This document shows, in pieces, positions 190 to 43,058 of a stretch of 45,281 nucleotides of DNA. The first letter of the stretch is position 1. Every line of letters starts with the position of its first letter. Location of the stretch: the IMG/VR virus record IMGVR_UViG_3300037424_000380, positions 1-45,281 of that record. One strand, given 5' to 3'. The DNA is from a virus (Duplodnaviria > Caudoviricetes). Both the position numbers and the translations under genes were made by a program. The notes under the pieces were generated by a model. It was not told the origin of the DNA and made no database searches. It saw nothing but the letters and a program-made list of their open reading frames with translations.

Positions 190-319
190 GTTTAAACAAC
201 CTATCGGATTTATCAAATTAAGGGAACGGTATCGGATCAAAGCGACACGTTGTTTTGTAAACGCTATCGACTGCCGATGCAGGATCTCAAAAGTCATGTT
301 CAAAGGAGATATACTATGA
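170..319 (+). CDS. Possible 49-aa hypothetical protein (MVVIDLGFKQ...)
   Basis: ATG overlaps the portal stop (TAATG); its stop overlaps the next ATG (ATGA). Confidence 0.35.
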   Translation: MVVIDLGFKQPIGFIKLRERYRIKATRCFVNAIDCRCRISKVMFKGDIL

Positions 320-594
320 CTAAGACCGAACCGACATTGCAGGAGATCGCGGATCTTCGAGCCGCAGCGAGTATACAGCACGTATTGCCGGAGATCCTGA
401 GTGAGATCGAGGCCATGGAGCAATCCACCCGGACGCAGGTATTTGGCAAGCTGCGTGCCGGTACCTTGACACCGCAAGAGGCTCTGGCATATTGGATGGA
501 GGTTTTTAGTTATCAACGTTTGCGCACAAAAATGACCTCCAAGGCCGAACTGGCGAATAAAATTACCGAAACAAGGAGTATTACAAATGGCTAA
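316..594 (+). CDS. Hypothetical protein between portal and scaffold
   Basis: AAGGAG RBS before ATG 316; overlaps the scaffold start. Confidence 0.75.
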   Translation: MTKTEPTLQEIADLRAAASIQHVLPEILSEIEAMEQSTRTQVFGKLRAGTLTPQEALAYWMEVFSYQRLRTKMTSKAELANKITETRSITNG

Positions 595-1345
595 GAAAGC
601 AAATCAGCAGGTATCGGCGGACGATATCCTGAAGCAGATGTACCCGGACATCAAGACTTCCGAGGACTATGAGGACGAGCAGAAGGCTAAGCAGACAACG
701 ACAGGCGATGACACCTCGAAAACGATTGCGGCGCTTCAGGCACAGATCGCACGGCTGGAGGGCTCAGTTTCCGCTTCACAGCGTCCGGCTCCTGTCACGC
801 AGAACTACGCCGCACCACAGCGGCCTGTGATCGATTGGGACAAGGCCCCCGATCCGATCCAAGAGCCCGGCAAGTATGGCCGGTTTCTCGCTGAGGCTAA
901 TCAAGCCATAATCGATTATGAGAAGCAGGCTTGGCAGTATCAGTCCTCGCAGCAGAATTTGAACACTGCACGGACGCAGAACCTGTGGGCCAAATTCGAG
1001 GCCAACTACAAGGAGTATACCGAAAACACGGATCGGGTCGAGATTGCCGCCAGTCGTGTGTTGCAGCGCTTGCAGGGCGCTGGTATGGATACGGACGCTT
1101 ACATGTACGGCCAGTCTGACCAGTTCATGAAGGACGTCGTGGCCGAGATCGACACGCTCTGGGGCAAGGGTGGTTCCGGCGGTGAAGACGATGCGGAGGA
1201 CGACGACGATAATCGGACGGTCGTGCTCGGCGGTGCTGGCGGCAATGCAAAAGGTCCGTCTCAACAGCAGGAACAGCCACAGAAGTATGGCTCGTTGTCG
1301 AACGATGTGCTTGCATGGCAGGAGAAGACCGGCTTCTATCGGTGA
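587..1345 (+). CDS. Putative capsid scaffolding protein
   Basis: Acidic, helical/coiled-coil with low-complexity linkers; directly upstream of the major capsid gene; AAGGAG RBS. Confidence 0.7.
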   Translation: MAKKANQQVSADDILKQMYPDIKTSEDYEDEQKAKQTTTGDDTSKTIAALQAQIARLEGSVSASQRPAPVTQNYAAPQRPVIDWDKAPDPIQEPGKYGRFLAEANQAIIDYEKQAWQYQSSQQNLNTARTQNLWAKFEANYKEYTENTDRVEIAASRVLQRLQGAGMDTDAYMYGQSDQFMKDVVAEIDTLWGKGGSGGEDDAEDDDDNRTVVLGGAGGNAKGPSQQQEQPQKYGSLSNDVLAWQEKTGFYR

Positions 1346-1348
1346 CTA

Positions 1349-1377
1349 TTGACCACATACTGTGTGGATGTTATTCT
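1349..1377 (+). promoter_or_regulatory. Sigma70-like promoter for capsid operon
   Basis: TTGACC-17 bp-TATTCT with TG extended -10. Confidence 0.6.
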
Positions 1378-1436
1378 TACAAATATTTTTTGGGCCAAGT
1401 CAAACATAGGCCCGTGCATAATGAAAGGGAATAAAT

Positions 1437-2372
1437 ATGGCTTGGGCTTATGACGCACCCTCTGGTGTCTACAAAAATCACGCATTGAGCACGAAGGTTC
1501 GTCGGCAGGCTCTGGCGAAGACGGTTTTCTTCAAGTATCTGACCCCGGAACCGGGCTATGGGCGTCGTAAGGGCGAGAGCGTTACGCTCACACGTATCCT
1601 GCGCCTGCCTCTGGCCAATCGTGTCAACGAAACTGATCGCCTTCCCGGTGGCCGTCCGGCAATCGAAACCAAGACGGTTCGCATTTCCGAGTGGGGCTAC
1701 AAGGTCCCGATGACTACTCGCGAAACGGACCTCACCTTCTTCGACCTGCCCGGTAACATCGAAGCGGCGCTTCGTGATCAGATCGAACTGACCATGGACG
1801 TACATGCCGCCGAAGTGTTCAAGCTGACCCCGATCAAGTACGTGCCGCTTTCGACCGGCTTCAACCTTGACACGGACGGCTCGGCCACGGGTGTTTCGGA
1901 TCGCAACATGTCGATCTCCGATCTGCGCTCGATCCACGACTATCTGTCTGGCGACTTGAAGGCTCCGACTTTTGCCAATGGCAAGTATGTCGGCATCCTC
2001 TCGACGCAGGCTGCCCGTGGTATCAAGAACGACCCCGAATACAAGGATTGGCTGGCTCCTACGACCGCAAGTCCGCTGCTGGACGGTGTGCTGAAGGACG
2101 TGGAAGGGTTTACCCTCTTCGAAAGCAACAACTTCGGTTACGAACGCGATGCACTTTCGAAGTTTGCCGGGACGTCGGTTACGTCCGGCGAGGCCATTTT
2201 CTTCGGTGCCGATAGCGCCGGGCTGCTGGAGATCCAGTCCCCGGAAATCCGCATGGGCGTGAAGGAAGATCTGGGCCGCTTCTACGAAGTCGGTTGGGTC
2301 GGTCAGCTGGAAGCTTTCCATACGTGGGAAAAGGCTTCTCTGGCACGCGTTGTGCACGTAACCTCGAACTAA
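1437..2372 (+). CDS. Major capsid protein (HK97 fold, N4-gp56-like)
   Basis: 311 aa after scaffold; GESVTLTR, ISEWGYKVPMT and LKDVEGFTLFES segments resemble this MCP type; strong codon bias. Confidence 0.85.
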   Translation: MAWAYDAPSGVYKNHALSTKVRRQALAKTVFFKYLTPEPGYGRRKGESVTLTRILRLPLANRVNETDRLPGGRPAIETKTVRISEWGYKVPMTTRETDLTFFDLPGNIEAALRDQIELTMDVHAAEVFKLTPIKYVPLSTGFNLDTDGSATGVSDRNMSISDLRSIHDYLSGDLKAPTFANGKYVGILSTQAARGIKNDPEYKDWLAPTTASPLLDGVLKDVEGFTLFESNNFGYERDALSKFAGTSVTSGEAIFFGADSAGLLEIQSPEIRMGVKEDLGRFYEVGWVGQLEAFHTWEKASLARVVHVTSN

Positions 2373-2384
2373 GGGAGAACAGAT

Positions 2385-9460: not shown

Positions 9461-9482
9461 GTGTTTAAACAAGGAGAAAACA

Positions 9483-16388: not shown

Positions 16389-17090
16389 ATGCGCAAACTT
16401 CTCATTGCACTACTCGCCACATTCACACTTTTCACAGCGCAGGCGCAAGCCTCGGAACTGAAGACCATCGCAGCGGCAACCTTCAAGCTCTATGAGGGCT
16501 CGACTGGCATGTGCTCGACCACATTCCTGAAGAACGATCCGAACGGCGCTTTGTTCCTGACGGCTGGCCACTGCGTTGACCAGATCAAGGATGCTGCGCC
16601 ACTGAACGTGCGCAAGCAGGTGTTGGCCCCGAATATGCGTACTGTCATGTCCGAACAGACCTTCTATGTCAAGCCGGTGAAGACACTCCTGAAAAAGGAC
16701 GTGGCTCTTTTGCAGGTCATGGACAAGAACGTTGTGTTCGCTGAGGCTGGCATTGATATCGCCACACCCGAGGAAGCAACTGCGCTTGAATTCGGCACGC
16801 CGGTCATGGTGATCGGCTATCCGGCAGCACAGGCTCTCTCGGTTACTAAGGGTGAGTTTACAGGCCTCATTCCGTCGCCGTTCGGTGATGTATTTGACCC
16901 TAACCTGACCATGTATCAGACCACGGCTCCGGTAGCTGGCGGTAATTCTGGTGGTGGCTTGTATGCACAATTTGGCGGTACTTGGAAGCTGATCGGAACG
17001 ACGACTGGTGCACGAACCGACAACAACATCATGACCTACTTCCAAACGGCGGACACGATCAAGACGGTGTTGACCGGCTTCATCAAGTGA
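16389..17090 (+). CDS. Secreted trypsin-like serine protease
   Basis: Sec signal (MRKLLIALLATFTLFTAQAQA); TAGHC, DVALL, GNSGGG catalytic motifs. Confidence 0.9.
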   Translation: MRKLLIALLATFTLFTAQAQASELKTIAAATFKLYEGSTGMCSTTFLKNDPNGALFLTAGHCVDQIKDAAPLNVRKQVLAPNMRTVMSEQTFYVKPVKTLLKKDVALLQVMDKNVVFAEAGIDIATPEEATALEFGTPVMVIGYPAAQALSVTKGEFTGLIPSPFGDVFDPNLTMYQTTAPVAGGNSGGGLYAQFGGTWKLIGTTTGARTDNNIMTYFQTADTIKTVLTGFIK

Positions 17091-17104
17091 TCACTATAGC
17101 GTTT

Positions 17105-17134
17105 AAACAAAGAGGGCTCCGTAACTGGAGCCCT
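17105..17134 (-). terminator. Terminator for leftward replication transcript
   Basis: AGGGCTCC/GGAGCCCT stem with T-tract on the minus strand. Confidence 0.6.
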
Positions 17135-18005: not shown

Positions 18006-18479
18006 TCAGATGCCCTCCGACAAGAGTTGGTTGATGGCGTAGATCGCGTCGTCAAGATTGTTTAAACGCAAGGCCGCGACCTGTGTCACAAACGGATGCT
18101 CATGGATATTCCCCGCGTCCTCCATCACCAGAATGATGGTCTTCCCGGCTTCGCAGGCCATTCCCATTTCGGAAACCGTTCCGATACTGATCCTTTGTGC
18201 ACCAAGCAGGTGCACGAGAACAATGTCAGATCGCTTGATGTCGAGCCGGTCCTTCTCGACAATCACTTTGGCCCCGGAGAAGAAGTGGCTTGGATAGTCA
18301 ACTGCAAGCGGCCCTTGAACCTCGGCCAGATGCCCTTCATGACGCATAGGCGACAGAACCTTGATGCCATTGGCCAGATTTTCTGTTACGCGCTTCCGCC
18401 AGCCATATCGTGCATCGGCATATGTCTCGCCCAAAATCGGGCCAGATAGGTACACCGACCCTTTGTATGTTGTCTCCAT
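18006..18479 (-). CDS. Nucleoside 2-deoxyribosyltransferase-like / nucleotide N-glycosidase
   Basis: VYLSGPI, VLSPMR, DRLDIKRSDIVLV, SIGTVSEMGMA motifs. Confidence 0.82.
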   Translation of the reverse strand: METTYKGSVYLSGPILGETYADARYGWRKRVTENLANGIKVLSPMRHEGHLAEVQGPLAVDYPSHFFSGAKVIVEKDRLDIKRSDIVLVHLLGAQRISIGTVSEMGMACEAGKTIILVMEDAGNIHEHPFVTQVAALRLNNLDDAIYAINQLLSEGI

Positions 18480-18493
18480 TGTAGTCTCCTTGT

Positions 18494-19630
18494 TTAAACG
18501 TTCTCCGTCAGCGTAAACTTGAGCCCTGTCTTAAAGTCAAATGTTTTCGACACAATGGTCCGCAACGCGGTGTGGCCCATGCTGGCATTCCATGCGTCCT
18601 TAGCCGTGAAGGCTGGCAAGATCTCCCACTGTGCGCCGTGCTTCTCGTCACCCTTCGGACCACTCTTGTTCTTATGGTAGTGCCCGGAGTACCCATATCG
18701 ATACTGCGTATTGCCCCAGACCTGCGGCTCAACGGCAGCCATGACGCCGGGCATATCCTCGGCCTTGATCTTGTCGCCGTGCGTGAATGACAGCATCGTC
18801 GTGCCCCACTGATATGACCACAACTCTGCCGGACTACGATCTATCACGACACGCTCGTTACCCTGATACCTGAACCACAGTGCCATACCAAGCGCCTTAC
18901 TCGCATATGGATCGTGATTGCCTCGACACACATGGACCACAACATGTGTATGCTTTTGCAGGGCCATATCGATCATCCAGATAATCAACTCCGTACCAAG
19001 ATGCAACACCTTGTCATGTCGCCCGTCCACATCAAGGTGGTTTCCAGACCGCTCGGTCACGGCGTTGTTGTTGTCGGCATGGAAGAAGTCACCAAGTACG
19101 ACGATCAGGGCCTTCTCGGAATTGGGTGAAATCAGAAACAGATCGCCGACCGACCCAAGAAATTGTTCCTTGGCGATATCCAGATCGTAATTTGCTCCAC
19201 TCTCCTTGGCCCATGCGTACATTCCCAGATGCACGTCCACAACCGGATATAGGGTCAACTTGTTCTCAAGTATGCGATCCCACGCTGGTGCTGTGATGTC
19301 AGGCAGCGGGGTGATACTTTGCCCCATGCGCTCGATCAATTCCTCGATCATACGCTCGACAGCTTCAGTCTCCGGCAACTTATGCTGCCATTCCATCCGT
19401 GTGCCGGTTGCATCTACAAGCGATGTGACTTTGCCCATTGTGTAGCCGGGCGGCAGTTCAGGGCCAAGAAACTGGCCGGTCAGATTGCGCTTGATCGCAG
19501 CCTTCACCGAACGCCGCATACTCGTTTCCGAGACACCAAACTCAGCCGCAGCGGCGGTATACGACCCAAGTTTTTGGTATACTTCATACCTACGAAGATG
19601 TTCCTCGTCAGCTATATGCACGTCAGCCAT
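18494..19630 (-). CDS. Calcineurin-like metallophosphoesterase with N-terminal HTH
   Basis: DVHLG, GDFFH, GNHD, HGD, GHYH motifs; N-terminal SYTAAAAEFGVSETSMRRSV HTH. Confidence 0.85.
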   Translation of the reverse strand: MADVHIADEEHLRRYEVYQKLGSYTAAAAEFGVSETSMRRSVKAAIKRNLTGQFLGPELPPGYTMGKVTSLVDATGTRMEWQHKLPETEAVERMIEELIERMGQSITPLPDITAPAWDRILENKLTLYPVVDVHLGMYAWAKESGANYDLDIAKEQFLGSVGDLFLISPNSEKALIVVLGDFFHADNNNAVTERSGNHLDVDGRHDKVLHLGTELIIWMIDMALQKHTHVVVHVCRGNHDPYASKALGMALWFRYQGNERVVIDRSPAELWSYQWGTTMLSFTHGDKIKAEDMPGVMAAVEPQVWGNTQYRYGYSGHYHKNKSGPKGDEKHGAQWEILPAFTAKDAWNASMGHTALRTIVSKTFDFKTGLKFTLTENV

Positions 19631-21257
19631 CAATAATTCTCCATTGATTTTCGTTCTCAAAAATAATTTCGTGCAATCCATTCGGATTTGTGTCGCTGCT
19701 ATGACCCCAATTCTGGCCGACCGAAGCCTCCGTCTCGATGACCATTGTTCTGGTCACGCCGTTCACGTCTTTGATCGGGATTGGGATTGTCATCAGCTGC
19801 ATTGCCTTGTGGACAAGATCGTAACGACCCTTTGGAAACTGAAAGAGAATAGCATCGTGCACCTGCGCAAGCAACTGTATCTCGGGCAACTCGATCCAGA
19901 TCCTCCAAATCCCGATACTAATGATGTGTCCAACCGTGGCCTGCGGGATCACCGCCAGACCTGTTTTGTACGTGTGCTCATCCCACGGACGACCAAACAA
20001 CTGGAACCGCACCCCTAACGGCGTGACAATCGGCCTCTGGTCCTGCACCAACTCGCGGATCATGCCTTGGTACTGCTTGATGCCCGGAAACGCCTTGAAA
20101 TATCGTAGCTGACCCTCAGTCGCTGCCGCAACAGGAATACGCTTCTGAATTGCCATCCCATACGGCGTCAACCCCAAGTTACTGCCGTGCTGCACGGCTT
20201 TCGACTGAAACCGATAATCATGCCCCTCTTTGTCATCCCATACCGGAGTATGGCTTTTGGCAATCTTTTTGTCTTTCTTCAGATCCCAAGTCCACTCTTC
20301 ACCGCCGACACCCTCGGGCCAGATCAGTCGGCACACAAACGTATGCGTATCGCCACCCTCATGGGCCTCGATATAAGCCTCATCGCCGGACACAAAGCTG
20401 ATCACCTTGCTCTCGGCCTGCTTCAAGTCCGCATAGCACAACTCCATACCGTCGTCGGCCTCGAAGGCATACCGATGCTTCTCTGTGATGTTCTGTGCGT
20501 TGCCGCCACGTCCATACGCGTCCTGATTGGATGACCATCTATGCGTTGAAGTCACACCAACATTGAAGTTGGAATGAAAGCGACCATCATCCTCCCTGAA
20601 CTTCAAAAAGCCAATCTGTTTGTGCAGATCCGCATGTCGGTTCAGAAGCTCAATCGGCTCTGCATACTTCTGCTCCTTGACTTTCAGCCGCCCGGCGATA
20701 CGCTCTCTGGCTTCCTTGTCCGCAGTAATCTTGCCATTTTTGTTCGTGACTGGCTTCAGCTTCCACAAGCCATACACCAGATGCTGCACGTCATCATCAC
20801 TTGATGGTTTAAACGGACGGACCTTCAGACGACTAGCTCCGCAGTCAAGACACTTGCGCTCTGCTGTATCCGGCACGCCCGGCTGCCACTTATGCTTCCC
20901 ATCCTTACGAGACGGCTTGGTGCACGCCCCGGTGTTCTTCTCCATGTGATCCCAAATAGGCTTGATCTCGCGATGGTTCGCCAACTGGCGCTCGACCTTA
21001 TTGCACTCCAAAGTCAGTTCCCGCAACAACTGATCCTTGGCCAGCAGATTGATTTTGATCCCTCTAACCGTCATGGCTATCGATGGACCCTGCAAAGCCA
21101 TATAAAAATCATGGACCCGCCTGTCGCCATCCGACATACGGGCCTCAAGGATATTGTCGATCTCCAGTGTTGCAATTGTATCAAGCGCATTGTAGGCAGC
21201 CTCACGCTGGAAGCCGACCGTGCTTTGCGCCTTGGTCAAATTGATTTTGAGGACCAT
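19623..21257 (-). CDS. polA: Family A DNA polymerase, polymerase subunit (begins at ExoIII)
   Basis: THRWSS, NAQNI, motif A ADLKQAE, motif B RFQSKAVQHGSNLG, motif C QVHDAI; N-terminal YNALD. Confidence 0.92.
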   Translation of the reverse strand: MVLKINLTKAQSTVGFQREAAYNALDTIATLEIDNILEARMSDGDRRVHDFYMALQGPSIAMTVRGIKINLLAKDQLLRELTLECNKVERQLANHREIKPIWDHMEKNTGACTKPSRKDGKHKWQPGVPDTAERKCLDCGASRLKVRPFKPSSDDDVQHLVYGLWKLKPVTNKNGKITADKEARERIAGRLKVKEQKYAEPIELLNRHADLHKQIGFLKFREDDGRFHSNFNVGVTSTHRWSSNQDAYGRGGNAQNITEKHRYAFEADDGMELCYADLKQAESKVISFVSGDEAYIEAHEGGDTHTFVCRLIWPEGVGGEEWTWDLKKDKKIAKSHTPVWDDKEGHDYRFQSKAVQHGSNLGLTPYGMAIQKRIPVAAATEGQLRYFKAFPGIKQYQGMIRELVQDQRPIVTPLGVRFQLFGRPWDEHTYKTGLAVIPQATVGHIISIGIWRIWIELPEIQLLAQVHDAILFQFPKGRYDLVHKAMQLMTIPIPIKDVNGVTRTMVIETEASVGQNWGHSSDTNPNGLHEIIFENENQWRIIDG

Positions 21258-21415
21258 AATTCTTCCCTTGTAATGCGAACGATCCGGCTGACTTTTCCCT
21301 TCAGCTTCGGCTCGGCCTCGACCTCCTTATGCGCATCCGCCAGTTCATCAGCCTGTAGCTGCACCCTCGGCAGACCACTATGCAACTCGGCATACAGTTT
21401 CGACAACTTCACCAT
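21236..21415 (-). CDS. Hypothetical 59-aa protein (MVKLSKLYAEL...) between polymerase halves
   Basis: Read manually; below ORF-track cut-off; fills gap in operon. Confidence 0.5.
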   Translation of the reverse strand: MVKLSKLYAELHSGLPRVQLQADELADAHKEVEAEPKLKGKVSRIVRITREELWSSKSI

Positions 21416-21418
21416 GGT

Positions 21419-21604
21419 TCAGACTAACCTGCGTTCCCAACACTTTTCACCATAACTATCTATAGTGTAACGCATCTCAATACGCTGTAGCCACACCCAT
21501 GAAGATGACCCATCCAAGTAATCAGCAATTTTAAGTGGATACCAAGCAAACCACGAGGTCCACTCCTGCCATTTTGTCGAGGATTTTTTAGTATGTATAA
21601 TCAT
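21419..21604 (-). CDS. Small Trp-rich hypothetical protein
   Basis: WTSWFAWYP...WVWLQRIE pattern common in small phage proteins; lower GC. Confidence 0.65.
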   Translation of the reverse strand: MIIHTKKSSTKWQEWTSWFAWYPLKIADYLDGSSSWVWLQRIEMRYTIDSYGEKCWERRLV

Positions 21605-21607
21605 AAC

Positions 21608-22609
21608 TCAACCGTCCTTTTTCTCAACCGCATTTTGATAACGGCCACCCCATGTTTTGTAAGCGCCGATCCGGGTGTAACTCGCGGCCATGTTGGCAAG
21701 ATCTGCCGGTAACTCGGAGTACAGCACCTTATGTCGCAGCCGGGTGTCGCTGCGATAGTTGCGTGTGGCGATCCCATGCTTGTCGTACAGCCAGACCAAA
21801 TCGTAGGTGTAATTCTGTCCGACCTTCGGATTAGGAGCCCCGAGTATTTCCTCCACAGCGCGCCATACACGCCATTCGGCCTCGACCGTGGGCCAGTACG
21901 AGCGATTTGGCTTGCGCAAGTCCACGAACGGCACAGACATGGCCCGACTAGTCGTAGGTGCAAAGGAGATAGCTGTGATCTGACCCCAACCTGTCTCGAT
22001 GTCCACACTCAACTTCGGACTGGCTTTGCACTCCGGGATGAAATCAAGCACATCCTGTACGGTCGGCTCGATCAACAACTCCACATGTGGGTAGACGATT
22101 TTCGGCCCGAGTTCTGCCTCGGCGTTCGCCTTGATCAGATCACCGACCACAATGGACAGCCAGATCCAATTCTTCTGTATCGCAGCCGGGTGGTAGGTGG
22201 GCAGAAGCTTGTGGCCCGCCATGATGTTCGTTGCAGGTGTCACAGCACCGCGATACTTGGCGATCAGCGTCTGGCCGGTAAATGCCCACAAAGCCGTGGC
22301 TCCTAGCGGAACGATCACGGTCGGCTGTACGGACTGCAATTGTTCGTTTAAACGAGCCATGTTCTCACAGACACGTACATCGTCCTTCATCCACTTGTCG
22401 ATATCACTTTCCTCATCAACAACCGTGTCAAATACGTTGCCAATGAAGAAGTCGTCACGCTCAAGATTTGCGCTCCGCAGCATGGCATTGAATAGTGCCC
22501 CGGATGTCCCGGTCATAGGCACGCTTTCACCGAACCGTGGCGCATCGGCGACAAAAGCAATACGGGTGGGAATGCTCGACGGCATTTGTGGCTTGACAGC
22601 ATGAGACAT
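21608..22609 (-). CDS. Uracil-DNA glycosylase-like domain fused to N-terminal part of the 3'-5' exonuclease (other half of split PolA)
   Basis: RIAFVADAP, PTVIVPLGATA, PTYHPAAI (family 4 UDG-like); ExoI SVDIETG and ExoII GQNYTYD. Confidence 0.85.
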   Translation of the reverse strand: MSHAVKPQMPSSIPTRIAFVADAPRFGESVPMTGTSGALFNAMLRSANLERDDFFIGNVFDTVVDEESDIDKWMKDDVRVCENMARLNEQLQSVQPTVIVPLGATALWAFTGQTLIAKYRGAVTPATNIMAGHKLLPTYHPAAIQKNWIWLSIVVGDLIKANAEAELGPKIVYPHVELLIEPTVQDVLDFIPECKASPKLSVDIETGWGQITAISFAPTTSRAMSVPFVDLRKPNRSYWPTVEAEWRVWRAVEEILGAPNPKVGQNYTYDLVWLYDKHGIATRNYRSDTRLRHKVLYSELPADLANMAASYTRIGAYKTWGGRYQNAVEKKDG

Positions 22610-23194: not shown

Positions 23195-23222
23195 TTGGCT
23201 TCTCCTTGTTTAAACTCTGGTG

Positions 23223-25392: not shown

Positions 25393-26556
25393 TCACCGCT
25401 CATGCAGCGGGTTCCACCGATCCTGCTTCTGGAAATTACTCGCCAGATAACGGTCACGCATGGCAGGGGGCTGTGAGCATGCTTGTTTAAACGGGCAAAG
25501 CCAGCAGTTGCGTTTGTTCATCGGCCAATACCCATGAATGGCATATTGCTCGGCCAGTTGTATCCAGACCTCCAGATCATGCAAATGCTCTTCGTGCTGT
25601 TCCTCGACCTTGTAGAATGGATGTCGTCCAAACGCAATTCCACCTACCATGATCTGCACGGCATCGACCATTGTCCCTCGAATATTCAGATCCGGGAAGG
25701 CCAGCGTCCCGACCATGGCGTAGGTGTCGAACTGCGTGTCGGGTGAGTACTGATCGAAATATTTCGAATTCAGCGTCTTGGTCGTGGTCTTGTTGTCCGT
25801 GATGAACAGCATGCTCCCGAACTGGCCGATGTAGTCGAAGTTCCATGTCAGGATGTAATCTTCGCCATAGTGGTTCTTGAACGGCAACGGCAATCGCCCA
25901 CTCAATTCAACCGCCATGGTCCCATCCGGGAAGACATATGGATGGTAGCTATCGGCAAGATCTTCTGGCTGCTCCAGCCCGTACCACACCAACGCCTGTA
26001 TCAACGACTGCCGGTTTTTGCGTGCATCGTCCGGGACGTACCGCCGCTCGACCACAATACCGCCACGGCATTCCGTGCAAATATCAGGTGGATCTCCGGG
26101 GAACCACGCCTTCTCGAAAGCGAACGGGCATTTGGCCCGATTGCCTTTGGAATTTTTGTATGGCATGCTGCCATCGCACTTCCACATCGTCTCGTACCGA
26201 CCGCCCCATTGCGTGCCCGGCTTTGGCGAGTTCAACTCATCGCCGGGGTCCACAGTGCTCGGATCTTCCCCATCATCTATCCGGGTCGGGATGCGCCCTT
26301 GGGTGTAGGTTTCCTCCATCGCCCATCGCACAACGGCGACCAGCGCATCTTCAATGGATTGACCGACTAGTCGGGCCTTCTGGAACCGCTCTAGACCGCT
26401 GGCGATCAATCGTCCAAAGGCAAGGTCCACGCTGCCGTTCTGCCAGCCCTCAAGGTTCGCATATTGGTAGTGTCGCGGACAGAACTGAAATGACTTCAGA
26501 CTGCTGGCGTCCCATGCGATCTGCAAATTCGGATTGTGCTTGCTAAAAGCGGTCAT
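25393..26556 (-). CDS. PD-(D/E)xK exonuclease (Cas4/RecB-like)
   Basis: DASSLKSFQFCPR, FDYI...TDNKT, QFDTY, CWLCPFKQAC. Confidence 0.85.
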   Translation of the reverse strand: MTAFSKHNPNLQIAWDASSLKSFQFCPRHYQYANLEGWQNGSVDLAFGRLIASGLERFQKARLVGQSIEDALVAVVRWAMEETYTQGRIPTRIDDGEDPSTVDPGDELNSPKPGTQWGGRYETMWKCDGSMPYKNSKGNRAKCPFAFEKAWFPGDPPDICTECRGGIVVERRYVPDDARKNRQSLIQALVWYGLEQPEDLADSYHPYVFPDGTMAVELSGRLPLPFKNHYGEDYILTWNFDYIGQFGSMLFITDNKTTTKTLNSKYFDQYSPDTQFDTYAMVGTLAFPDLNIRGTMVDAVQIMVGGIAFGRHPFYKVEEQHEEHLHDLEVWIQLAEQYAIHGYWPMNKRNCWLCPFKQACSQPPAMRDRYLASNFQKQDRWNPLHER

Positions 26557-28225: not shown

Positions 28226-28525
28226 CTATCGTTGTTTGAGTTTAAACGCGATGTACTCGTACTGTTCAGGCCGCAACTTGCGCTGCACCAGAGTTACCCG
28301 CCCTTTTTCATAGGCGTGCCACGCCATCTGGCCAAGGGTATGCATAGGCTCATAAAACACATGCATGTAGCTACCGTAGCCCGGCAACAATGTGACCGTC
28401 TCCCGGTCAGCGGCCAGAAACCCACGGTAGTATATGAAATGTGCCCCGGCTCTAGCCGTGTCCAGCCACCGCTGGAATGATGCCACTGTAATTTCGTCAT
28501 GATCCTGTGATATACTTTCTTTCAT
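28226..28525 (-). CDS. Hypothetical protein, possible winged-helix DNA-binding protein
   Basis: WL..A..G..FIYYRGFLA.DR...G.V.LVQRK...YEYIA pattern I associate with alphaproteobacterial phage proteins; first gene of leftward operon. Confidence 0.6.
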   Translation of the reverse strand: MKESISQDHDEITVASFQRWLDTARAGAHFIYYRGFLAADRETVTLLPGYGSYMHVFYEPMHTLGQMAWHAYEKGRVTLVQRKLRPEQYEYIAFKLKQR

Positions 28526-29107: not shown

Positions 29108-29452
29108 ATGTCTGTAGATTTCTCCCCATTCGAGTTCGATGACACCATCGTCTTCACGCAGTTCATGTTCCCTGACGGCGGGCGTAAGCAAACCCTCGCC
29201 CCGATGCCGAACCCCGCCGAAGAGTGGGCTCCAAAGGTCCAGCGCTTGTTGGACGCCGGTATGACCTTCACCTGTGAGAAACACCCACAGTCACAAATGG
29301 TTACACTCTATGTCAGCGACGACGCTCACGACCGCGATATCGCCACGGTTTGTTTCATGGACAGTTATGGCAGCCCGGACGAGCATCTGAAGAACCTCAT
29401 CACCATGGCTCTCACTCGTTTAAACGAGAGCCCCTTGTCGCAGGAGAACTGA
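29108..29452 (+). CDS. Hypothetical protein
   Basis: AAGGAG RBS; 114 aa. Confidence 0.7.
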   Translation: MSVDFSPFEFDDTIVFTQFMFPDGGRKQTLAPMPNPAEEWAPKVQRLLDAGMTFTCEKHPQSQMVTLYVSDDAHDRDIATVCFMDSYGSPDEHLKNLITMALTRLNESPLSQEN

Positions 29453-31487: not shown

Positions 31488-31523
31488 TCCCATATCCTCA
31501 TCGTTTAAACACGGAGACATCCA

Positions 31524-31776: not shown

Positions 31777-32077
31777 CCTGTACCCACGCGACTACCTGCT
31801 ACTGCAAAACGTTGTCGAGCGGCAAGAGGAACTAAACGCCGCATTGTCCGGCAAAATCGTCATCATGGCCAGTGGCATATACGCCGGTCGCCGTGGTCGT
31901 GTTGACAGCGTCCAAATGCATTCGGGCTACAACCCCGGCTGGCTGTTCTACATTCGCCTGTCCGAACCCGGCTGGGACGACTATTTCTACAACCTGATCG
32001 TCGCTCGCCACAACGAATTCCAGTTCGAGGATGCCCAAACGCCGGGAGAGCCTGATCATGGCCCCACGCAAGCTTAA
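31766..32077 (+). CDS. Hypothetical protein, KOW-like motif
   Basis: GKIVIMASGIYAGRRGRV. Confidence 0.6.
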   Translation: MTTNLYPRDYLLLQNVVERQEELNAALSGKIVIMASGIYAGRRGRVDSVQMHSGYNPGWLFYIRLSEPGWDDYFYNLIVARHNEFQFEDAQTPGEPDHGPTQA

Positions 32078-32282
32078 TCAGAAGGAATACGAGTTCCTGA
32101 CAGCCTGTTGCGATTGTGCGCCTTACCGTGGGCTCATGGCTCCGCCTGAGTACAAAAAGGCCGCGACTTCGTTATTGCGCAAAGGCTTGTTGTGGAATTT
32201 GGGCTTTTCCGACTTTCGCGTCTATATCGCAACCGAGAAAGGTCGCAAGCTTTGTGCGGAACTTCACACAAACTTCGTTTAA
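32058..32282 (+). CDS. Hypothetical protein, winged-helix-like
   Basis: SLLRKGLL...VYIATEKGRKL wHTH-type ending. Confidence 0.6.
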   Translation: MAPRKLNQKEYEFLTACCDCAPYRGLMAPPEYKKAATSLLRKGLLWNLGFSDFRVYIATEKGRKLCAELHTNFV

Positions 32283-32297
32283 ACAAGGAAACTAACC

Positions 32298-33137: not shown

Positions 33138-33345
33138 CAACGTTCATCTACCGTGTGTTTTACAGCGCTCTGATCGCTGCCGCTATTCTCGGCATCGCCC
33201 ACGAAATGGCAACGCTGTTACCATAATTACGCGACGTTCCCGTGGCAGTCCATCGCGGGAATGGTGCAAGAGGAAAGCCGGGGGGTGAATAGGCGCGTTC
33301 TCCGGCTTTCCTATACCCGCACCACACCATGCGTTTAAACACAGA

Positions 33346-34715: not shown

Positions 34716-34919
34716 ATGCAGAAGATCTATCTCGACTACGGTCGCGCACCAGTCCGTAACGATCACTATGTCGCCAGACGCGTGTTCCGCTATGCGTTTA
34801 AATCCGCAGACAACACGATCAACATTGGTTCGGTTGTGGCCTACACAAGGCCCGGCGCGATTACCACATTGCAGCTTGATCCGTCCCGCGTGACTGACAA
34901 GCTGAAGGAGATCTTGTGA
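34716..34919 (+). CDS. Hypothetical protein
   Basis: GAGGA RBS. Confidence 0.6.
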   Translation: MQKIYLDYGRAPVRNDHYVARRVFRYAFKSADNTINIGSVVAYTRPGAITTLQLDPSRVTDKLKEIL

Positions 34920-35236
34920 TGGCCGCCGAATGCAGAGAATGTGGTTGCCCGATCAACAGCGGACGGACAGGCGTTTATTTCTGTTCACCAGAGCACCGCA
35001 AGACGTGGAACAACCGACGCGCCGTGCGCGGCGCTGAGTTGTATGATCTGTTCATGGCCAATCGCTTTGAGCGGCAGTTGGCCACGGACAAGCACATGTG
35101 GTCGATCATGACCAATCTCGCCTCCGCCTATCGGGACGCAGACAAGGCGTTGCGGAGCGGCAGGCGGTCATGGGACGCCAAGGAAACACTTGCCCGGTTG
35201 CCAATGGCATTCGGCACAGATGGAGACAAACGCTAA
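34919..35236 (+). CDS. Zinc-finger protein
   Basis: CRECG...FCSPEH treble-clef-like motif followed by NNRRAVRGAELYDLFMA helix. Confidence 0.7.
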   Translation: MAAECRECGCPINSGRTGVYFCSPEHRKTWNNRRAVRGAELYDLFMANRFERQLATDKHMWSIMTNLASAYRDADKALRSGRRSWDAKETLARLPMAFGTDGDKR

Positions 35237-35306: not shown

Positions 35307-35510
35307 ATGTCACATGATCTGAAATCACTGATTGGCCCCGTCGTGCACATGGAGGTGGTCGCATGGTATCAGGGCTATGAGGCGCGATACGCCAGCCGTG
35401 GCAAAGGTGCCAACCCCTATGCAAGCCATGTGTTCGGCCCCGAATGGCTGAACGGCTGGCAATTGGCGGATGAGGAACTGAGAGTGAACGGGACGTATCT
35501 GATTCGCTAG
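35307..35510 (+). CDS. Rmf/CrpP-like domain protein
   Basis: AWYQGYEA...NPY...EWLNGW matches ribosome modulation factor-like signature. Confidence 0.6.
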   Translation: MSHDLKSLIGPVVHMEVVAWYQGYEARYASRGKGANPYASHVFGPEWLNGWQLADEELRVNGTYLIR

Positions 35511-35569: not shown

Positions 35570-35605
35570 GTGCGTTTGGTGTTGTGCGTTTAAACGCGAG
35601 TGGTG

Positions 35606-36232
35606 TCATGCCTGCCGTTGGAAGATTGTGTGGCAGGTGTTGCAAGTGCAATCAAAGGCGTCTCGGGCAACACGGACCCGCAACGGCGGTTCGCAAGCGC
35701 ATGTGAAGAGGCGAAGTCGTGAGCCAGATCCGACGCCACGGGACTTGCCACCACGCGTGCCAATCGCTGCCGTGCATGGCTTGGGGCCGGTCTTGCGACC
35801 AAAGTCGAGCGTGACTGGCTCACCATCGTCCGGCTTGGGTATGTCAGCGATTGCATCCCGAATGTCAGGGGCGAACATAGACCAGATGTAGCTTGTGCCA
35901 GCGGCACGCGAACGACGCAGACCGAGTTTTTCGCAAGCCGCTTTCCACTCCGGGCCATGACCGGCAGACCATCCGGCGAGCACATGAGCAAGCTCGTGGA
36001 TCGTGGTCCCTGCCAGTTGTGTGATCGATGACTGGTTGAAGGCGGAAATCTCCACGAATGGAGCTTTGCTGTCAGCCTTGCCCCATTTGTCGTAGTATGT
36101 CACGCCACGCACGCCGTTAGGACCAGCGCCATAGGCGAGCTTGACATTCTTGCATGTGCATTGCTCCACGGACGATAGACGCGAACAAGCTATGTCCGCG
36201 ACCTTGTGAACGAAGTCTTCGTGGGTAAACAT
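35606..36232 (-). CDS. SprT-like zincin metalloprotease with C-terminal Zn ribbon
   Basis: TIHELAH...GHGPEWK...LG; CAC...CNTC. Confidence 0.8.
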   Translation of the reverse strand: MFTHEDFVHKVADIACSRLSSVEQCTCKNVKLAYGAGPNGVRGVTYYDKWGKADSKAPFVEISAFNQSSITQLAGTTIHELAHVLAGWSAGHGPEWKAACEKLGLRRSRAAGTSYIWSMFAPDIRDAIADIPKPDDGEPVTLDFGRKTGPKPCTAAIGTRGGKSRGVGSGSRLRLFTCACEPPLRVRVARDAFDCTCNTCHTIFQRQA

Positions 36233-36304: not shown

Positions 36305-36646
36305 TTATGCCGTGGTGTCGTTTGCCGTAATAAAACAGATTGTGCCGTTTGGGTTTTGCACATAGACGGCTTCTTGTTGTGCATCTTCGACGACGATCCG
36401 GGCAATGTGATGCAGGCGTTGCACGTTGATGGGCAAATCCTCCATAGCAATGGTGTAGACCATAACAGCTTCGGTCACAACCGTTCCATCCGGTGATTTC
36501 CAGCCGCCGAAAGAGTGTGTCGCGGTGAAGCCGCCAAAGTCTTCAACAAGGGTTTTCTGAACCCATGTGCGAAGATCGGCAAGACCATATCCGGCATTGT
36601 TGCGAGCGGGGACGATGATCTGAGCGGTGCGGAGTGCATGTGTCAT
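36305..36646 (-). CDS. DUF3574-like / PII-like fold protein, candidate SAM lyase
   Basis: FGGFT...GGW...G.VVTE...QQEAVYV pattern; AGGAG RBS. Confidence 0.6.
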   Translation of the reverse strand: MTHALRTAQIIVPARNNAGYGLADLRTWVQKTLVEDFGGFTATHSFGGWKSPDGTVVTEAVMVYTIAMEDLPINVQRLHHIARIVVEDAQQEAVYVQNPNGTICFITANDTTA

Positions 36647-36649
36647 GTC

Positions 36650-37660
36650 GGTAGCTCCTAGGATTTGGCCGTGGGCCGTTGTGCCGTGGGTGGCAGGTGT
36701 CTTTATAGCATGTGTGTTTAAACGGGTGAAGCAAAAATATGCCGTGGGCCGTTGACAGTGGGCGATGATTGTTCACAGTGAACGGATGGGGAACAAATCG
36801 CATGGTGGGATTTTGTGAGCCGTGACAGCGGGATAGGGGTAAAGCGAGCCGTGGGCCGTTTATGGGCGATTGGGGGCCATGTTGCCGATTTGCCACGGTG
36901 GACGGGACACGGCGGGGTGAGCCGGGGCCGAGTTGCGGTTATGCTCGGGCTGAGCATAAGTGCTTGGCGGTATTGCGCGATTGTTTCGGAAGCGTAATGA
37001 TTAACTTGTTAACTATCGATGCTGAACTTGTTAACTAGTATGTTAGTTGCGCACCGTGAGGGGTCCAAAACCACGCGCTCGACCGGCACACGGCATAACG
37101 GTGTACGGCATAGCGATCACATAGCACAACAGTTATATGCACCAACAACGGGCCATGCACGGCAGGGGGCTGCGTTAGGGACGACTTACGTAAGGGCTGG
37201 CTTACACATGCACACGCAGCGCACGGCAAGGGGTAAGCACATGATTACATTAGGCCGGGCTTATGTAAGCATAGAGGCACATAAGCACATAGCTACGTAA
37301 GCACACACGCACAGAGGGGCGCGTAAGCCGTGGCGCACGTAAGCACACACTTACGTAAGCACAGGGGGCACCTAGTTCCCCCCAGACGGCCTACGGCACG
37401 CGAGCTCGTTCAGGGACCCAATACACTGGTTGAGGTGCCTTTCACCACATGCAACCACTAGTTGCGCACACACCCACAGCCCACGGTCAACGGCAGATCG
37501 TAACTCTTTGATAACACATGACTAATAGCCCGCGAGCCTCGCTTCGCTCGGCCACACCGCATGGCGTAACGGCATAGCATCCCACGGCACACGGTGTACT
37601 TAACATGTTAAATATATACACCGACCTTCCCCCTTCGACCGCTTTACCCCGCGCCGTGGT
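36650..37660. other. Repeat-rich non-coding region (candidate origin, packaging or terminus region)
   Basis: No credible ORF; GCCGTGGGCCGTT x3, AACTTGTTAACTA x2, GTAAGCAC-like array; strand-composition switch near 37010. Confidence 0.6.
36702..36730 (-). promoter_or_regulatory. Sigma70-like promoter with GTTTAAAC in spacer
   Basis: TTCACC-17 bp-TATAAA with TG extension. Confidence 0.5.
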
Positions 37661-39123: not shown

Positions 39124-39868
39124 CGCTATCGACAAAAAGCTCCGGGTCACGTACAAGCCCGAGATCGCCCTGCGTATCTGCGAAGAGGTCGCCGGTGGTG
39201 CGACCATCGTGGAGATTGAGGCCACGGATGGTATGCCGTCACGGTCCACAATTTATCGCTGGCTGGCCGTGTACCCAAAATTCTTCGACGCCTATGAGCG
39301 AGCCCGCGAGGTGAGCGCGCAGTCGTTCGAGGATGAAGCCCTGATGATGGCCCGCACGCTGAAGAACGCCAATGACTTCACAGGGGTTAAGGTACAGGCG
39401 TACAACATCGCCATGCAACAGTTGCGGTGGTCCGCCTCCCGGCGCGACAAGGCCCGTTACGGCCAACAGATCCAAGGCGCGACTACGGTGCCGATACAGA
39501 TCAACACCACACTTAATCTGGCACAGGACGGCCAGCCACAGCCGACCGACACACAGAGCAGCATCTACACGGTTGAGGCCACGGTGACGCTTGGCCATGC
39601 GGAGACTGAGGGCTACGAAGAGGACAGCGTCGAACAGATGGTCGGTGAGGGCGAAGTGCTTGACCTGTCGGCAAACCCGGACGATGATGAGAAGTTGCCG
39701 TTCGGCCTTCCAGAGACTGAAACCCAACAGCTTCACAATCCGAAAAACGGCAGGCCGTTTAAACAACATCGGAAAGGGCCGCGCAAGTCGGCAGGGCAGG
39801 CGGCACGCAGCGCCAAGATCTATGCGGCAACACAGGCGAGAGCCACAAACAAACAGGACACGGAATAA
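39113..39868 (+). CDS. terS: Terminase small subunit
   Basis: ICEEVAGG...GMPSRSTIYRWL...FFDAYERARE (Sf6 gp1-like) plus long acidic/basic tail. Confidence 0.82.
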   Translation: MPANAIDKKLRVTYKPEIALRICEEVAGGATIVEIEATDGMPSRSTIYRWLAVYPKFFDAYERAREVSAQSFEDEALMMARTLKNANDFTGVKVQAYNIAMQQLRWSASRRDKARYGQQIQGATTVPIQINTTLNLAQDGQPQPTDTQSSIYTVEATVTLGHAETEGYEEDSVEQMVGEGEVLDLSANPDDDEKLPFGLPETETQQLHNPKNGRPFKQHRKGPRKSAGQAARSAKIYAATQARATNKQDTE

Positions 39869-40851: not shown

Positions 40852-40911
40852 GTTGCACAGGCGTGAAAAAGACCAACAAGGCAGGCAAACCGAAACCAAA
40901 AGGACCACGAA

Positions 40912-41044: not shown

Positions 41045-41061
41045 TACTATGTGAGTGTGAT

Positions 41062-41277
41062 ATGGCAGAGATTTCTCATTACATAATTATTAACAAAAAA
41101 ACTGGTGCACAAGTAGATAAAGCTACTACGCTAAAAGGTGCACGCAAGTCTGTAGATAGAAATGATAATAGTTATGGCGGTTATATTCATACGTTTAAAC
41201 CAATTTATATACAAGAGAAAAGTGAACTGCGAAATGGTAATCCATTTGATAAAGCCAAAAAGACCATGAAGGGCTGA
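41062..41277 (+). CDS. AT-rich hypothetical protein
   Basis: Low-GC ORF bounded by 13-bp direct repeats. Confidence 0.55.
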   Translation: MAEISHYIIINKKTGAQVDKATTLKGARKSVDRNDNSYGGYIHTFKPIYIQEKSELRNGNPFDKAKKTMKG

Positions 41278-41278
41278 C

Positions 41279-41566
41279 ATGGACACCAAAGGGCGGCGAC
41301 AAAGCAAGAACGTAGTGGGAAGAGAGCTTGCGCCGCTCGTAGGAGCGAGCCAGTCGCTGCGGCAGCCGATAGTAAAATTCGTCCCACTTAATGGTGAGCA
41401 ACTGGATGCCTTTGATAAGGCCAAGTCTCTTGGGTTGGACAAAGCGCTTAAAGCCATGCCGGACGCTGTGAAGCGAGATATGCAGATGAGAGCCGAGCGG
41501 CAGAAGGCTGAACGGACAAAAACTAGCCGGAACCCCACGAAGCGCGAGCAACAGAAAAGAAAATAA
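41279..41566 (+). CDS. Small basic hypothetical protein
   Basis: Operon position; GRRQSKNV motif. Confidence 0.6.
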   Translation: MDTKGRRQSKNVVGRELAPLVGASQSLRQPIVKFVPLNGEQLDAFDKAKSLGLDKALKAMPDAVKRDMQMRAERQKAERTKTSRNPTKREQQKRK

Positions 41567-41567
41567 C

Positions 41568-43058
41568 ATGCCAGCTACAGAACGGAAGATCATCAATTTC
41601 AATCCGAACCCGATCCAGAAGGGGTTTATCGAGAGCCAAGCATACGCCGACCTGTTTTCCAGCCGTGTCGGTGAGGGCAAGTCCACGGCGTTGGTGTGGT
41701 CCTGCTTCTATCACACGAAGCACAATCCGGGGGCCGAGTGGGCCTTTATCCGCGATACGTTTGAGAACATTCAAAAATCCACCATGAAGACCTTCTTCGA
41801 GTGGTTCCCGCCCGGCATCTTTGGCACGTATAACGCTACGAAGAAAACCTTCACATGGGCCGAGGGCATCGCATCCGGGACTGTGACCTTTGTGGGTATG
41901 GACGACCCGAGCGATGCATCAAAGCTTCTGTCGTGGGTGCTAGGCGGCATTGCGATTGACGAGCCCGCGCCAGCGGCAGGCTCACATGGGGTGGACGAAA
42001 TGGTGTTCGACCTCGGGATGCAGCGTCTGCGCCAGCCGGGGCTCAAGTGGTATGCAATGAAGCTGGCCACGAACAATCCTGATGAAGAGCATTGGACATA
42101 CCGCAAGTTCGTCAACGAGGCCGAAGAAAATAACTACAGGCTATGGCAGCCAACGAAGCCTGAAAATATATCGAACCTGCCGGAAGGCTACTATGAGCGG
42201 CTGCGCAAGCAGATGGGCCATAGGCCGGACCTTGTGCGACGCTTCATCGATGGCGAATTTGGCTTCCAGCAGGAAGGCGAACCGATCACCCCACAGTGGT
42301 CCGACCGTATCCACCTGACGATGGGCCTATCACCGATCCGAGGCCGTGAGATTGTTCTGCTGTGGGACTTCGGGCACAACCCGACCTGCATCATCACGCA
42401 GCGCACACCGCTTGGGTATTGGAACATTCTGTACTCCTTCGTTGGTGAGGGCATCGGCGTCGAAGAGCTAATCGTGGATCAGGTCACGCCTGTGCTGAGG
42501 GACAAATTCCCCAAGTGCCCGATCCGGCATATCGGCGATCCGGCAGGTAATCAGCGTGAACAGACGAGCATCCAACGGTCAGCGGTCAAATCCATCAAGC
42601 AGTTGATCGGTGGCACATGGCGGTCCGGCCCGGTAAAGTGGGAAGAACGTAAGAACCCGCTTCAGGCCGTCCTCACACGGACCATTCAAGGCGTCGGGTT
42701 GGTGCAGGTTGATCGTTTAAACGCACCACATGTTTGGCACGCATTGCGCGGTGGTTGGCACTACCACAAGTCGCGGACCGGCACAGTGTCGGCTGAGGCA
42801 TTGAAGGACAAACATAGCCACCCCGGCGATGCCATGTCTTACGGCGCGGCGATCCTTTTTCCCGTTGGGCGTGTGTTGGGTGAGGGTGGAAAGATCATCG
42901 ATCCGAAAACGGGCCACTACTTTGGTGACAACCAACATGCCAGCGAGGGCATCATTCGCCCTGACGAGCCATTCAGGATAGGGCCGAGCGGTCCTACCCG
43001 CATGCCGGAACACGGAGAAATCGTTGTGCCGGGACGAGGCGGCAAGGGGTACTTCTAA
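41568..43058 (+). CDS. terL: Terminase large subunit
   Basis: PIQKGF Q-motif, SRVGEGKS Walker A, IAIDEP Walker B, ATNNP, WDFG and HPGDAMSY nuclease motifs. Confidence 0.92.
   Translation: MPATERKIINFNPNPIQKGFIESQAYADLFSSRVGEGKSTALVWSCFYHTKHNPGAEWAFIRDTFENIQKSTMKTFFEWFPPGIFGTYNATKKTFTWAEGIASGTVTFVGMDDPSDASKLLSWVLGGIAIDEPAPAAGSHGVDEMVFDLGMQRLRQPGLKWYAMKLATNNPDEEHWTYRKFVNEAEENNYRLWQPTKPENISNLPEGYYERLRKQMGHRPDLVRRFIDGEFGFQQEGEPITPQWSDRIHLTMGLSPIRGREIVLLWDFGHNPTCIITQRTPLGYWNILYSFVGEGIGVEELIVDQVTPVLRDKFPKCPIRHIGDPAGNQREQTSIQRSAVKSIKQLIGGTWRSGPVKWEERKNPLQAVLTRTIQGVGLVQVDRLNAPHVWHALRGGWHYHKSRTGTVSAEALKDKHSHPGDAMSYGAAILFPVGRVLGEGGKIIDPKTGHYFGDNQHASEGIIRPDEPFRIGPSGPTRMPEHGEIVVPGRGGKGYF

Follow-up and report, generated by a model that had tools for sequence, protein, structure and literature searches.

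A strict 8-bp palindrome iterated through a podophage genome and the SprT-like protein that may read it

The 45,281-bp viral record IMGVR_UViG_3300037424_000380 (99% complete; the whole stretch is called the window here) carries 19 copies of the palindrome GTTTAAAC, an array that is real and under selection. In sequence comparisons the word, or a one-letter variant of it, appears to go with a gene for an SprT-like zinc metalloprotease across phages and plasmids, and the window's copy of that gene, 35606-36232, is a strong candidate that very probably encodes the binder of the sites. We favour the prediction, held as rather probable, that the protein is a dimeric, sequence-specific repressor with an attached protease. 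This reading is based on selection on the word, linkage of gene and word, covariation of the word with the protein's zinc ribbon, and the fold.

All 19 copies lie where a sequence-only reading of the window had placed them, against 0.23 expected from an order-2 Markov model, which makes GTTTAAAC the most frequent 8-mer of the window at a density of 420 per Mb. The 24 possible one-base variants total just 8 copies, so the word is strict. The flanks extend the symmetry as that reading had described, with a 5′ pyrimidine at 16 and a 3′ purine at 17 of the 19 sites; around 154 sites we found no longer consensus and no second motif at a fixed distance, the flanks being weakly symmetric with a G/C/G preference at +1 to +3. 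By our own gene caller 9 copies lie in genes (the earlier count was nine or ten), 8 are intergenic and 2 lie over stop codons, and the in-gene copies are read as R-L-N at 4 sites and x-F-K at 5. Synonymous-codon shuffling (1000 shuffles) left 0.34 in-gene copies on average and never more than 3 (9 were seen), in line with the proposal that selection acts on DNA rather than protein. Half of the codon contexts that permit the word are used (9 of 18): none of the 6 that precede 17 kb and 9 of the 12 beyond it. The virion block is nearly unmarked. The 17 sites between 17.1 and 42.7 kb, a region picked post hoc, are spaced more evenly than random (coefficient of variation (CV) 0.46, p 0.0004); even spacing was not found over the whole window (CV 0.94). 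Five copies directly precede a ribosome-binding site (RBS), as had been noted (9463, 18492, 23208, 31503 and 32277). The copy at 36716 had been assigned to a promoter spacer; a consensus scan scored no sigma-70 promoter there, and the gene pair that includes sprT begins 69 bp downstream of it.

Relatives were collected by capsid searches, and 18 of at least 35 kb were read whole (one long record with 0 sites, G070, was left out). Any GTTTAAAC occurred in 13 of 41 and 1 of 29 capsid-search records, many of which are fragments. The whole relatives comprise 5 motif-rich genomes (18, 23, 16, 35 and 12 sites) and 13 motif-poor ones (0–2 sites). A gene co-occurring with the word in related phages had been suggested as something to look for, and one was found that the earlier reading had not named: 35606-36232 is the sole window open reading frame (ORF) whose distribution follows the word. 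All 5 rich relatives have it, at 40–52% identity, as do the rich fragments G002 and G020, and 12 of the 13 motif-poor relatives lack it; for five other rich fragments (G003, G004, G017, G021 and G033) the available sequence does not include the gene. The motif-poor exception, G050, has a 31% SprT copy whose C-terminal loop is rewritten, and its genome carries GTGTACAC (3 copies versus 0.16 expected; 6 versus 0.05 at a related locus). G040, which has the gene and 16 sites, nests with G023 and G048, which have neither, both on the capsid tree and on the portal tree, the latter a quick one. No equally strong replacement palindrome was found in motif-free relatives, among which G054 and G068 show a CTCGAG-type bias only. 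On these comparisons the GTTTAAAC trait appears all-or-none among the capsid relatives and seems to track the SprT-like gene.

The three binders proposed earlier are set aside. Homologs of 28226-28525 occur in motif-free G071, G023, G010, G048 and G050; 32058-32282 (searched as 32031-32282) had no match in any of 26 relatives; and the helix-turn-helix (HTH) candidate 18494-19630 is a metallophosphoesterase/exonuclease absent from motif-rich G040. The DUF3574-like gene 36305-36646 is probably co-transcribed with sprT and, judged by its distribution, appears dispensable for the gene-word system.

To look beyond the clade, subfamily A of the SprT-like protein was assembled by a profile search (68 loci, 71 with an earlier search), and 56 loci were kept at 38% identity or more over 90 residues after dropping 14 weak or divergent matches and 1 duplicate. 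The 43 subfamily A loci without clade core genes hold 87 GTTTAAAC versus 1.8 expected; 27 have at least one site, 17 reach p <0.001, and 19 have a site within −150 to +720 of the gene start. Twelve SprT-less capsid relatives (554 kb) hold 3 copies versus 2.85 expected. Positions relative to the sprT start recur at −21 to −127, +52 and +617, and whole records, covering 50 of 57 loci, contained GTTTAAAC in 35 of 50. Eighteen of the 56 A loci are without GTTTAAAC, and 10 of these show a one-base variant at uncorrected p <0.01, the clear cases being GGTTAAAC (5 versus 0.08 and 5 versus 0.19) and GTGTAAAC (4 versus 0.04). All-against-all comparison of 43 sprT loci and 16 genomes gave no second shared gene family among the 45 largest ORF clusters, a search that very short or divergent ORFs may escape. 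MW202512.1, the only GenBank phage with this protein, served as a held-out test and has 9 sites, one of them abutting the sprT RBS; window-type SprT had no match on plasmids.

A motif-first scan with a 14-base form of the word returned at least 123 stretches, 80 with flanks. An SprT-like gene was present at 8 of the 12 loci with further copies at p <0.001 (9 counting the whole record) versus 4 of 68 others; among short loci it lay within 300 bp in 5 of 43. Most of these genes form a distant subfamily B, initially weak matches of the A profile, which equals PHROG 6361. Subfamilies A and B are homologous over 176 columns (hhalign 96%, E 2e-9), and the alignment pairs S-G-S-R-L-R-L with Q-G-T-R-L-L-K. 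Eleven motif-first loci went into the B profile, so its scores on them are not independent; the best 80 of 312 subfamily B loci hold 722 sites versus 11.2 expected, with 68 loci significant and a control word at 9 versus 24.

Subfamily B records number 164 from phages and 74 from plasmids, and we examined 18 phages and 3 plasmids. Cultured carriers of arrays are Arthrobacter, Microbacterium, Streptomyces and proteobacterial phages and a Magnetospira plasmid. All 13 of the cultured phages whose ribbon is intact have arrays, and in 11 of them a copy lies no more than 140 bp ahead of the annotated sprT start. The word is GTTTACAC in Powerpuff (27 copies), Yang (20), Liebe (17), Zeta1847 (22), Gretchen (14), LazerLemon (40), Araceli (41) and 4A (13), and GTTTAAAC in Mica (7), Arya (7), ECO1230-10 (5, only 0.97 expected), Mano (4) and Persinger (4), so that the family word is GTKTAMAC. 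Phages with a rewritten ribbon, from two lineages (Dismas, Eden, Brahms, FP1 and Psa21-HRN), have 0–1 copies in 5 of 5 cases. The Magnetospira plasmid (L365, NZ_FO538766.1), whose sprT is annotated as hypothetical, has 18 GTTTAAAC in 31 kb versus 0.4, running through its transfer genes, and a Sphingomonas plasmid has 3 versus 0.05 expected. On a Ralstonia plasmid, with an R-H ribbon as in G050, GTTTAAAC is absent and GTGTACAC occurs twice, once 56 bp before sprT. The word thus appears to covary with the ribbon, being lost when the ribbon is rewritten and shifted to GTGTACAC with the other ribbon.

Alphaproteobacterial chromosomes carry GTTTAAAC at no more than about 38 per Mb, mostly below 3 in large genomes, and among 60 alphaproteobacterial genomes the word was below its reversed control in 51, equal in 3 and above in 6. 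From these counts GTTTAAAC does not look like a host chromosomal word. Separately, the 1.4-Mb bacterial genome G203 has 39 GTTTAAAC versus 3 control words, unlike the rest of the class sample. Among the functions first suggested for the array, a stoperator-like regulator and a self-marking factor remain the leading ones; a host nucleoid or segregation protein is unlikely, because the word is rare in alphaproteobacterial chromosomes and follows the phage gene across host phyla.

The window protein matches Pfam SprT-like PF10263 at E 5e-4, below the gathering cut-off, and PHROG 6361 at E 2.8e-9; no NCBIfam family was found for it. H79, E80, H83 and H92 are invariant in 39 of 39 aligned subfamily A proteins, as are ribbon residues C153, C178, C180, C200, R172 and R187 in the same 39 rows, and C197 is nearly so. 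Its model (predicted local distance difference test score (pLDDT) 88, with a flexible linker at 141–170) is closest to SPRTN 6mdx (Z 9.3, root-mean-square deviation 2.8 over 102 residues), and structural matches span residues 1–161 only. A Foldseek search of the PDB also ranked SPRTN best, at E 0.038, with no match at E 0.001 or better. The C-terminal region resembles Zn_ribbon_SprT in an Atlas look-alike search (score 0.76), which is a lead only. Modelled as two copies, the protein scored 0.70 versus 0.00 for the best control, with the protease sheet as the interface, at least 59% of contacts in common between runs and a pLDDT of at least 75; in our benchmark 20 of the 30 solved pairs reached the 0.70 mark, as did 1 of the 23 single chains. 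The models support an SPRTN-like homodimer that would fit a palindromic site, and together with the site data they favour the dimeric binder suggested earlier. HExxH is present in 68 of 80 subfamily B loci; in the other 12 the ribbon and the sites are retained, so that the core role is probably to read DNA. Long basic extensions resembling histone H1 occur in some SprT-like proteins (L051:1569-2879 in G040, and L186).

Table 1 Copies of GTTTAAAC in the window, the proposed site-binding gene and its upstream neighbour.
Feature	Position	Strand	Context
GTTTAAAC	190..197	.	Intergenic after portal stop; next start 118 bp on
GTTTAAAC	9463..9470	.	Abuts RBS; ATG 9483 12 bp on; sole copy within virion block
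GTTTAAAC	17101..17108	.	Convergence of late (+) and replication (-) blocks
GTTTAAAC	18060..18067	.	Within nucleoside deoxyribosyltransferase gene, R-L-N
GTTTAAAC	18492..18499	.	Spans stop of 18494-19630; abuts RBS, ATG 18479 12 bp on
GTTTAAAC	20807..20814	.	Within DNA polymerase A, P-F-K
GTTTAAAC	22346..22353	.	Within UDG-like/3′-5′ exonuclease gene, R-L-N
GTTTAAAC	23208..23215	.	Abuts RBS; ATG 23194 13 bp on
GTTTAAAC	25485..25492	.	Within PD-(D/E)XK nuclease gene, P-F-K
GTTTAAAC	28240..28247	.	3′ end of 28226-28525, A-F-K; next start 23 bp on
GTTTAAAC	29418..29425	.	14-bp palindrome including flanks; within 29108-29452, R-L-N; ATG 29454 28 bp on
GTTTAAAC	31503..31510	.	Abuts RBS; start 31524 13 bp on
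GTTTAAAC	32277..32284	.	Spans stop of 32058-32282; abuts RBS of ATG 32298
GTTTAAAC	33333..33340	.	Intergenic
GTTTAAAC	35588..35595	.	10 bp beyond sprT stop codon; early (+) genes and sprT converge
GTTTAAAC	36716..36723	.	69 bp upstream of gene pair ending in sprT; candidate autoregulatory operator
GTTTAAAC	39757..39764	.	Within small terminase gene, P-F-K
GTTTAAAC	41193..41200	.	Within 41062-41277, T-F-K; next start 78 bp on
GTTTAAAC	42715..42722	.	Within large terminase gene, R-L-N
SprT-like zinc metalloprotease, 208 amino acids, proposed site binder	35606..36232	-	HExxH 79-83, third His 92, Gly/Arg loop, C-terminal zinc ribbon
DUF3574-like gene	36305..36646	-	Directly upstream of sprT; Pfam E 6e-5; matches in just 3 of 26 relatives

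Placement of the sites points to gene control. Across 8 rich genomes, 143 sites divide into 57 intergenic, 11 at gene edges and 75 in coding sequence, in genomes with 84–94% coding DNA, so that 68 sites lie outside genes or at their edges where only some 10% of the DNA is non-coding, and 33 of 139 sites lie within 25 bp of a start (own gene caller), peaking at 10–18 bp, versus about 4.5% by chance. This start-proximal bias, together with a copy at sprT's own start, resembles the anatomy of a repressor regulon. In the proposed mechanism, the protease domains of two chains would pair and so display a pair of C-terminal zinc ribbons; the conserved S/T-R-x-x-K/R strand of these ribbons may read the half-sites of GTTTAAAC. 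The protein would sit by its own gene and by many early and replication genes, at promoters, before RBSs and inside coding sequence, and its binding would damp transcription, giving negative feedback in lytic phages and lysogeny control in temperate ones. The protease half may be an accessory switch or effector, lost in some lineages, acting for example by DNA-triggered self-cleavage as in SPRTN or by cutting proteins at the site. That repression is the main function is our proposal, and we hold it to be somewhat more probable than its alternatives taken together.

Several observations weigh against this reading. The 75 coding copies, the use of permissive codon contexts (24 of 34 in G042, about half overall) and the even spacing in 4 of 12 other genomes (Powerpuff, Gretchen and LazerLemon at p 0.002 or less, the Magnetospira plasmid at p 0.018) suit a covering of the DNA, be it by roadblocks or by a coat, no less than promoter control. 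Lysogeny cannot be what the system serves in general, since no integrase or partition gene was matched among the 82 window ORFs scanned. Gene and word also part company: 16 of 43 gene-bearing loci on other backbones are without GTTTAAAC, 8 of the 18 site-free A loci have no enriched variant though the ribbon is intact, 3 of the 12 motif-enriched loci have no SprT-like gene in the DNA examined, and Caulobacter phage Kuura has 3 GTTTAAAC sites versus 0.06 expected and no SprT match. Loci within each set are partly related, many B phages being kin, so the counts overstate independent events, and loci without HExxH could have an intact paralog elsewhere. For the plaque phenotypes discussed below, three further positions besides the sprT truncation differ between Liebe and Maureen.

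The same coding copies and even spacing bring in a protease shield, in which the SprT-like protein would again bind the sites but would do so to station an active protease every 1–3 kb on the element's own DNA, with the own-gene copy only feedback. Its targets would be host xenogeneic silencers, translocating restriction or SMC-type defence complexes, or trapped topoisomerases. We consider this rather unlikely. It would fit the catalytic residues (invariant in 39 of 39 A proteins and found at 68 of 80 B loci), the regular spacing in the window's early region and in the four elements named above, the large share of coding opportunities used and the arrays on plasmids; a word far rarer in alphaproteobacterial chromosomes than in the window would label self, and SPRTN is described as cleaving DNA-bound proteins (PMC5128726). 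It is harder to square with the arrays kept at the 12 of 80 B loci whose active site is lost, with the marked bias to just before start codons, and with a virion block that is almost unmarked (0 of 6 coding opportunities before 17 kb versus 9 of 12 after). Genome-wide spacing is moreover uneven in 5 of 5 clade relatives, and several elements have just one or two sites, at sprT itself.

Kuura and the three enriched loci with sites and no gene would be explained if a host protein bound the word and the phage protease were its antagonist, an anti-repressor of the ImmA/IrrE type; IrrE and CapP are among the weak fold matches, and, with no other gene found in common among the elements, a binder other than the SprT-like protein would have to come from the host. 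Yet the hosts belong to the Actinobacteria and to three classes of Proteobacteria, 54 of 60 alphaproteobacterial genomes show no enrichment of the word over its reversed control, and the preferred word follows the ribbon, being lost on ribbon rewrite within one host genus (EB versus EH Microbacterium phages). This makes a host binder improbable. Slightly more improbable is a modification or recombination tag (HIP1-like, a methylase target or a nicking site) kept by a mutational or repair process: the strictness of the word with almost no one-base variants, its weak flanking consensus and its presence in all permitting reading-frame options fit such a tag, but no methylase was found among the 82 window ORFs scanned, the co-occurring gene has a zincin rather than a nuclease or methylase fold, and sites are biased to sprT's own start and to RBSs. 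In GC-rich genomes A/T-rich words are frequent immediately ahead of RBSs, which could make the array a by-product of codon and RBS preferences, or of composition or assembly. An artefact is nevertheless scarcely conceivable given 19 copies versus 0.23 and 9 versus 0.34 in codon shuffles, zero copies in sister phages of similar composition, and arrays reproduced in GenBank isolates.

Other iterated words, namely HIP1, uptake sequences and parS, are host-encoded and chromosomal; GTTTAAAC differs in not being enriched in chromosomes of the likely host class (60 genomes). ImmA/ImmR and CapP/CapH are metallopeptidase-repressor switches, and LexA and CI are repressors that contain a self-cleaving domain. 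Systems of the IrrE type consist of two proteins and employ an XRE-type HTH, whereas LexA/CI rely on a serine autoprotease and RecA. Like IrrE/DdrO, itself a metallopeptidase-repressor switch (PMC6868357), and like LexA/CI, the system proposed here would couple protease activity to a palindrome-binding repressor. Unlike in IrrE/DdrO and ImmA/ImmR, no co-inherited partner HTH gene was found here among the 45 largest ORF clusters, and protease and reader would be one chain.

The closest likeness is to the stoperators of cluster A mycobacteriophages (L5 gp71, TipsytheTRex repressor), asymmetric 13-mers oriented with transcription and located for the most part in short gaps between genes. Their repressor is a monomer with HTH and Stoperator domains that, once bound, stops transcription and confers immunity (PMC9283540). 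Shared with them are twenty-odd copies of one word spread over a phage genome, at promoters and near gene starts, a single phage protein, a copy by its own gene and a candidate immunity role. Here, however, the word is a strict 8-bp palindrome with half of its copies in genes, and the protein is a predicted dimer of zincin and zinc ribbon with no HTH, found also on plasmids and in phages without integrase. With SPRTN and Wss1 it shares the HExxH zincin domain, followed here by a putative zinc-binding region, 6mdx being the best structural match. SPRTN is activated by many DNA types, cleaves itself and cleaves DNA-bound proteins irrespective of identity; the available text does not describe it as sequence-specific (PMC5128726), whereas the present protein appears to covary with one 8-bp word. 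The array would work like an operator array, but it belongs with none of the stoperator, SPRTN and IrrE/DdrO systems.

Earlier accounts of phage and plasmid SprT proteins differ in role. In cluster AZ phages, immune lysogens form without a known repressor (PMC8758107), and the AZ 'SprT-like protease' (Lizalica gp46) has been predicted to function like SPRTN and put forward as a candidate lysogeny factor (10.1101/2025.05.26.655371). The same source reports clear plaques for Liebe, with a truncated SprT, and turbid plaques for Maureen, and mentions unspecified repeats near the AZ SprT gene, data not shown; the immune lysogens and the plaque difference favour the repressor reading. In the text available it names no binding site and does not describe the GTTTACAC array, which has 17–27 copies in three AZ phages. 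Jumbo-phage SprT proteins have been proposed to cut host proteins (PMC7824862), the IncU mpR peptidase was assigned no role in the accessible text (PMC7414963), and the accessible description of Kuura mentions no palindrome (PMC9959647). Full-text literature, which included few subscription papers, gave among the matches listed no account of GTTTAAAC or GTTTACAC phage arrays, of the gene-word link or of a sequence-specific SprT protein.

The window itself is a podophage genome. It has genes for terminase, portal, capsid and lysis, its DNA polymerase A is split and its early region is divergent; the 82 ORFs scanned gave no match to an integrase, a partition gene or a methylase. Megablast of its 17–41 kb segment against 50,697 phages gave no match, the collection has no close isolate, and terminase and polymerase searches returned distant isolates only, the nearest in layout being Kuura (polymerase 29%). 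GANTC occurs once versus 153 expected and is near-absent in most close relatives too, a shortage that we take as a sign of an alphaproteobacterial host with CcrM; the host is, from this depletion, probably an alphaproteobacterium. Ten 6-bp palindromes are absent from the window, for example GCCGGC, CGGCCG and CGATCG. Near-complete phage contigs of the clade (L093, L096, L099 and L100) were binned into unrelated metagenome-assembled genomes, and the names of those organisms therefore do not indicate hosts.

A second strict palindrome, CGACTAGTCG, has 6 window copies versus 0.15 expected, 5 of them in genes versus 0.1 after codon shuffling. Counted from the first base of GACTAGTC, the copies are at 11116, 21946, 26365, 29776, 34683 and 44118, one lying directly after a -10-like TACAAT ahead of gene 34716. 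Among relatives it occurs in G042 (3), G002 (2) and G020 (1), and not in G001, G019, G040 or G073; ORF 34916-35236 (PHROG 20494) is present in the carriers G002, G042 and G020, yet also in G073 and G074. The contig ends, 1-189 and 45093-45281, form a repeat of about 189 bp with a base difference that ends exactly before the GTTTAAAC at 190 and is probably an assembly overlap. DNA polymerase A (19623-22609) is divided between two genes, one for the polymerase and one for a UDG-like plus 3′-5′ exonuclease part, and both recur in relatives and in Kuura. The ORF at 35307-35510 resembles ribosome modulation factor, with a Pfam match above the cut-off, and a trypsin-like peptidase follows the lysis genes at 16389-17090.

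We tentatively extend the repressor reading to a possible, widespread class of DNA-address-guided proteases in phages and plasmids, in which a zinc-ribbon dimer would read a self-written 8-bp word that the host nearly lacks, confining proteolysis to self DNA, and would serve as a one-chain immunity repressor in AZ and EH phages; the targets of such a protease might, equally tentatively, be itself, RNA polymerase or host silencing and defence proteins. The system would be categorically new if the protease acts at the sites. If the repressor reading is true, the common 'SprT-like protease' of phages and plasmids would gain its first specific function and DNA target, and a protease-fold protein would join the sequence-specific DNA readers. 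It would also supply a concrete candidate, one protein with 17–27 mapped sites, for the immunity repressor of clusters AZ and EH, which two papers leave unidentified. An 8-bp-addressed protease or repressor with a ribbon-dependent word would, moreover, be a useful engineering part.

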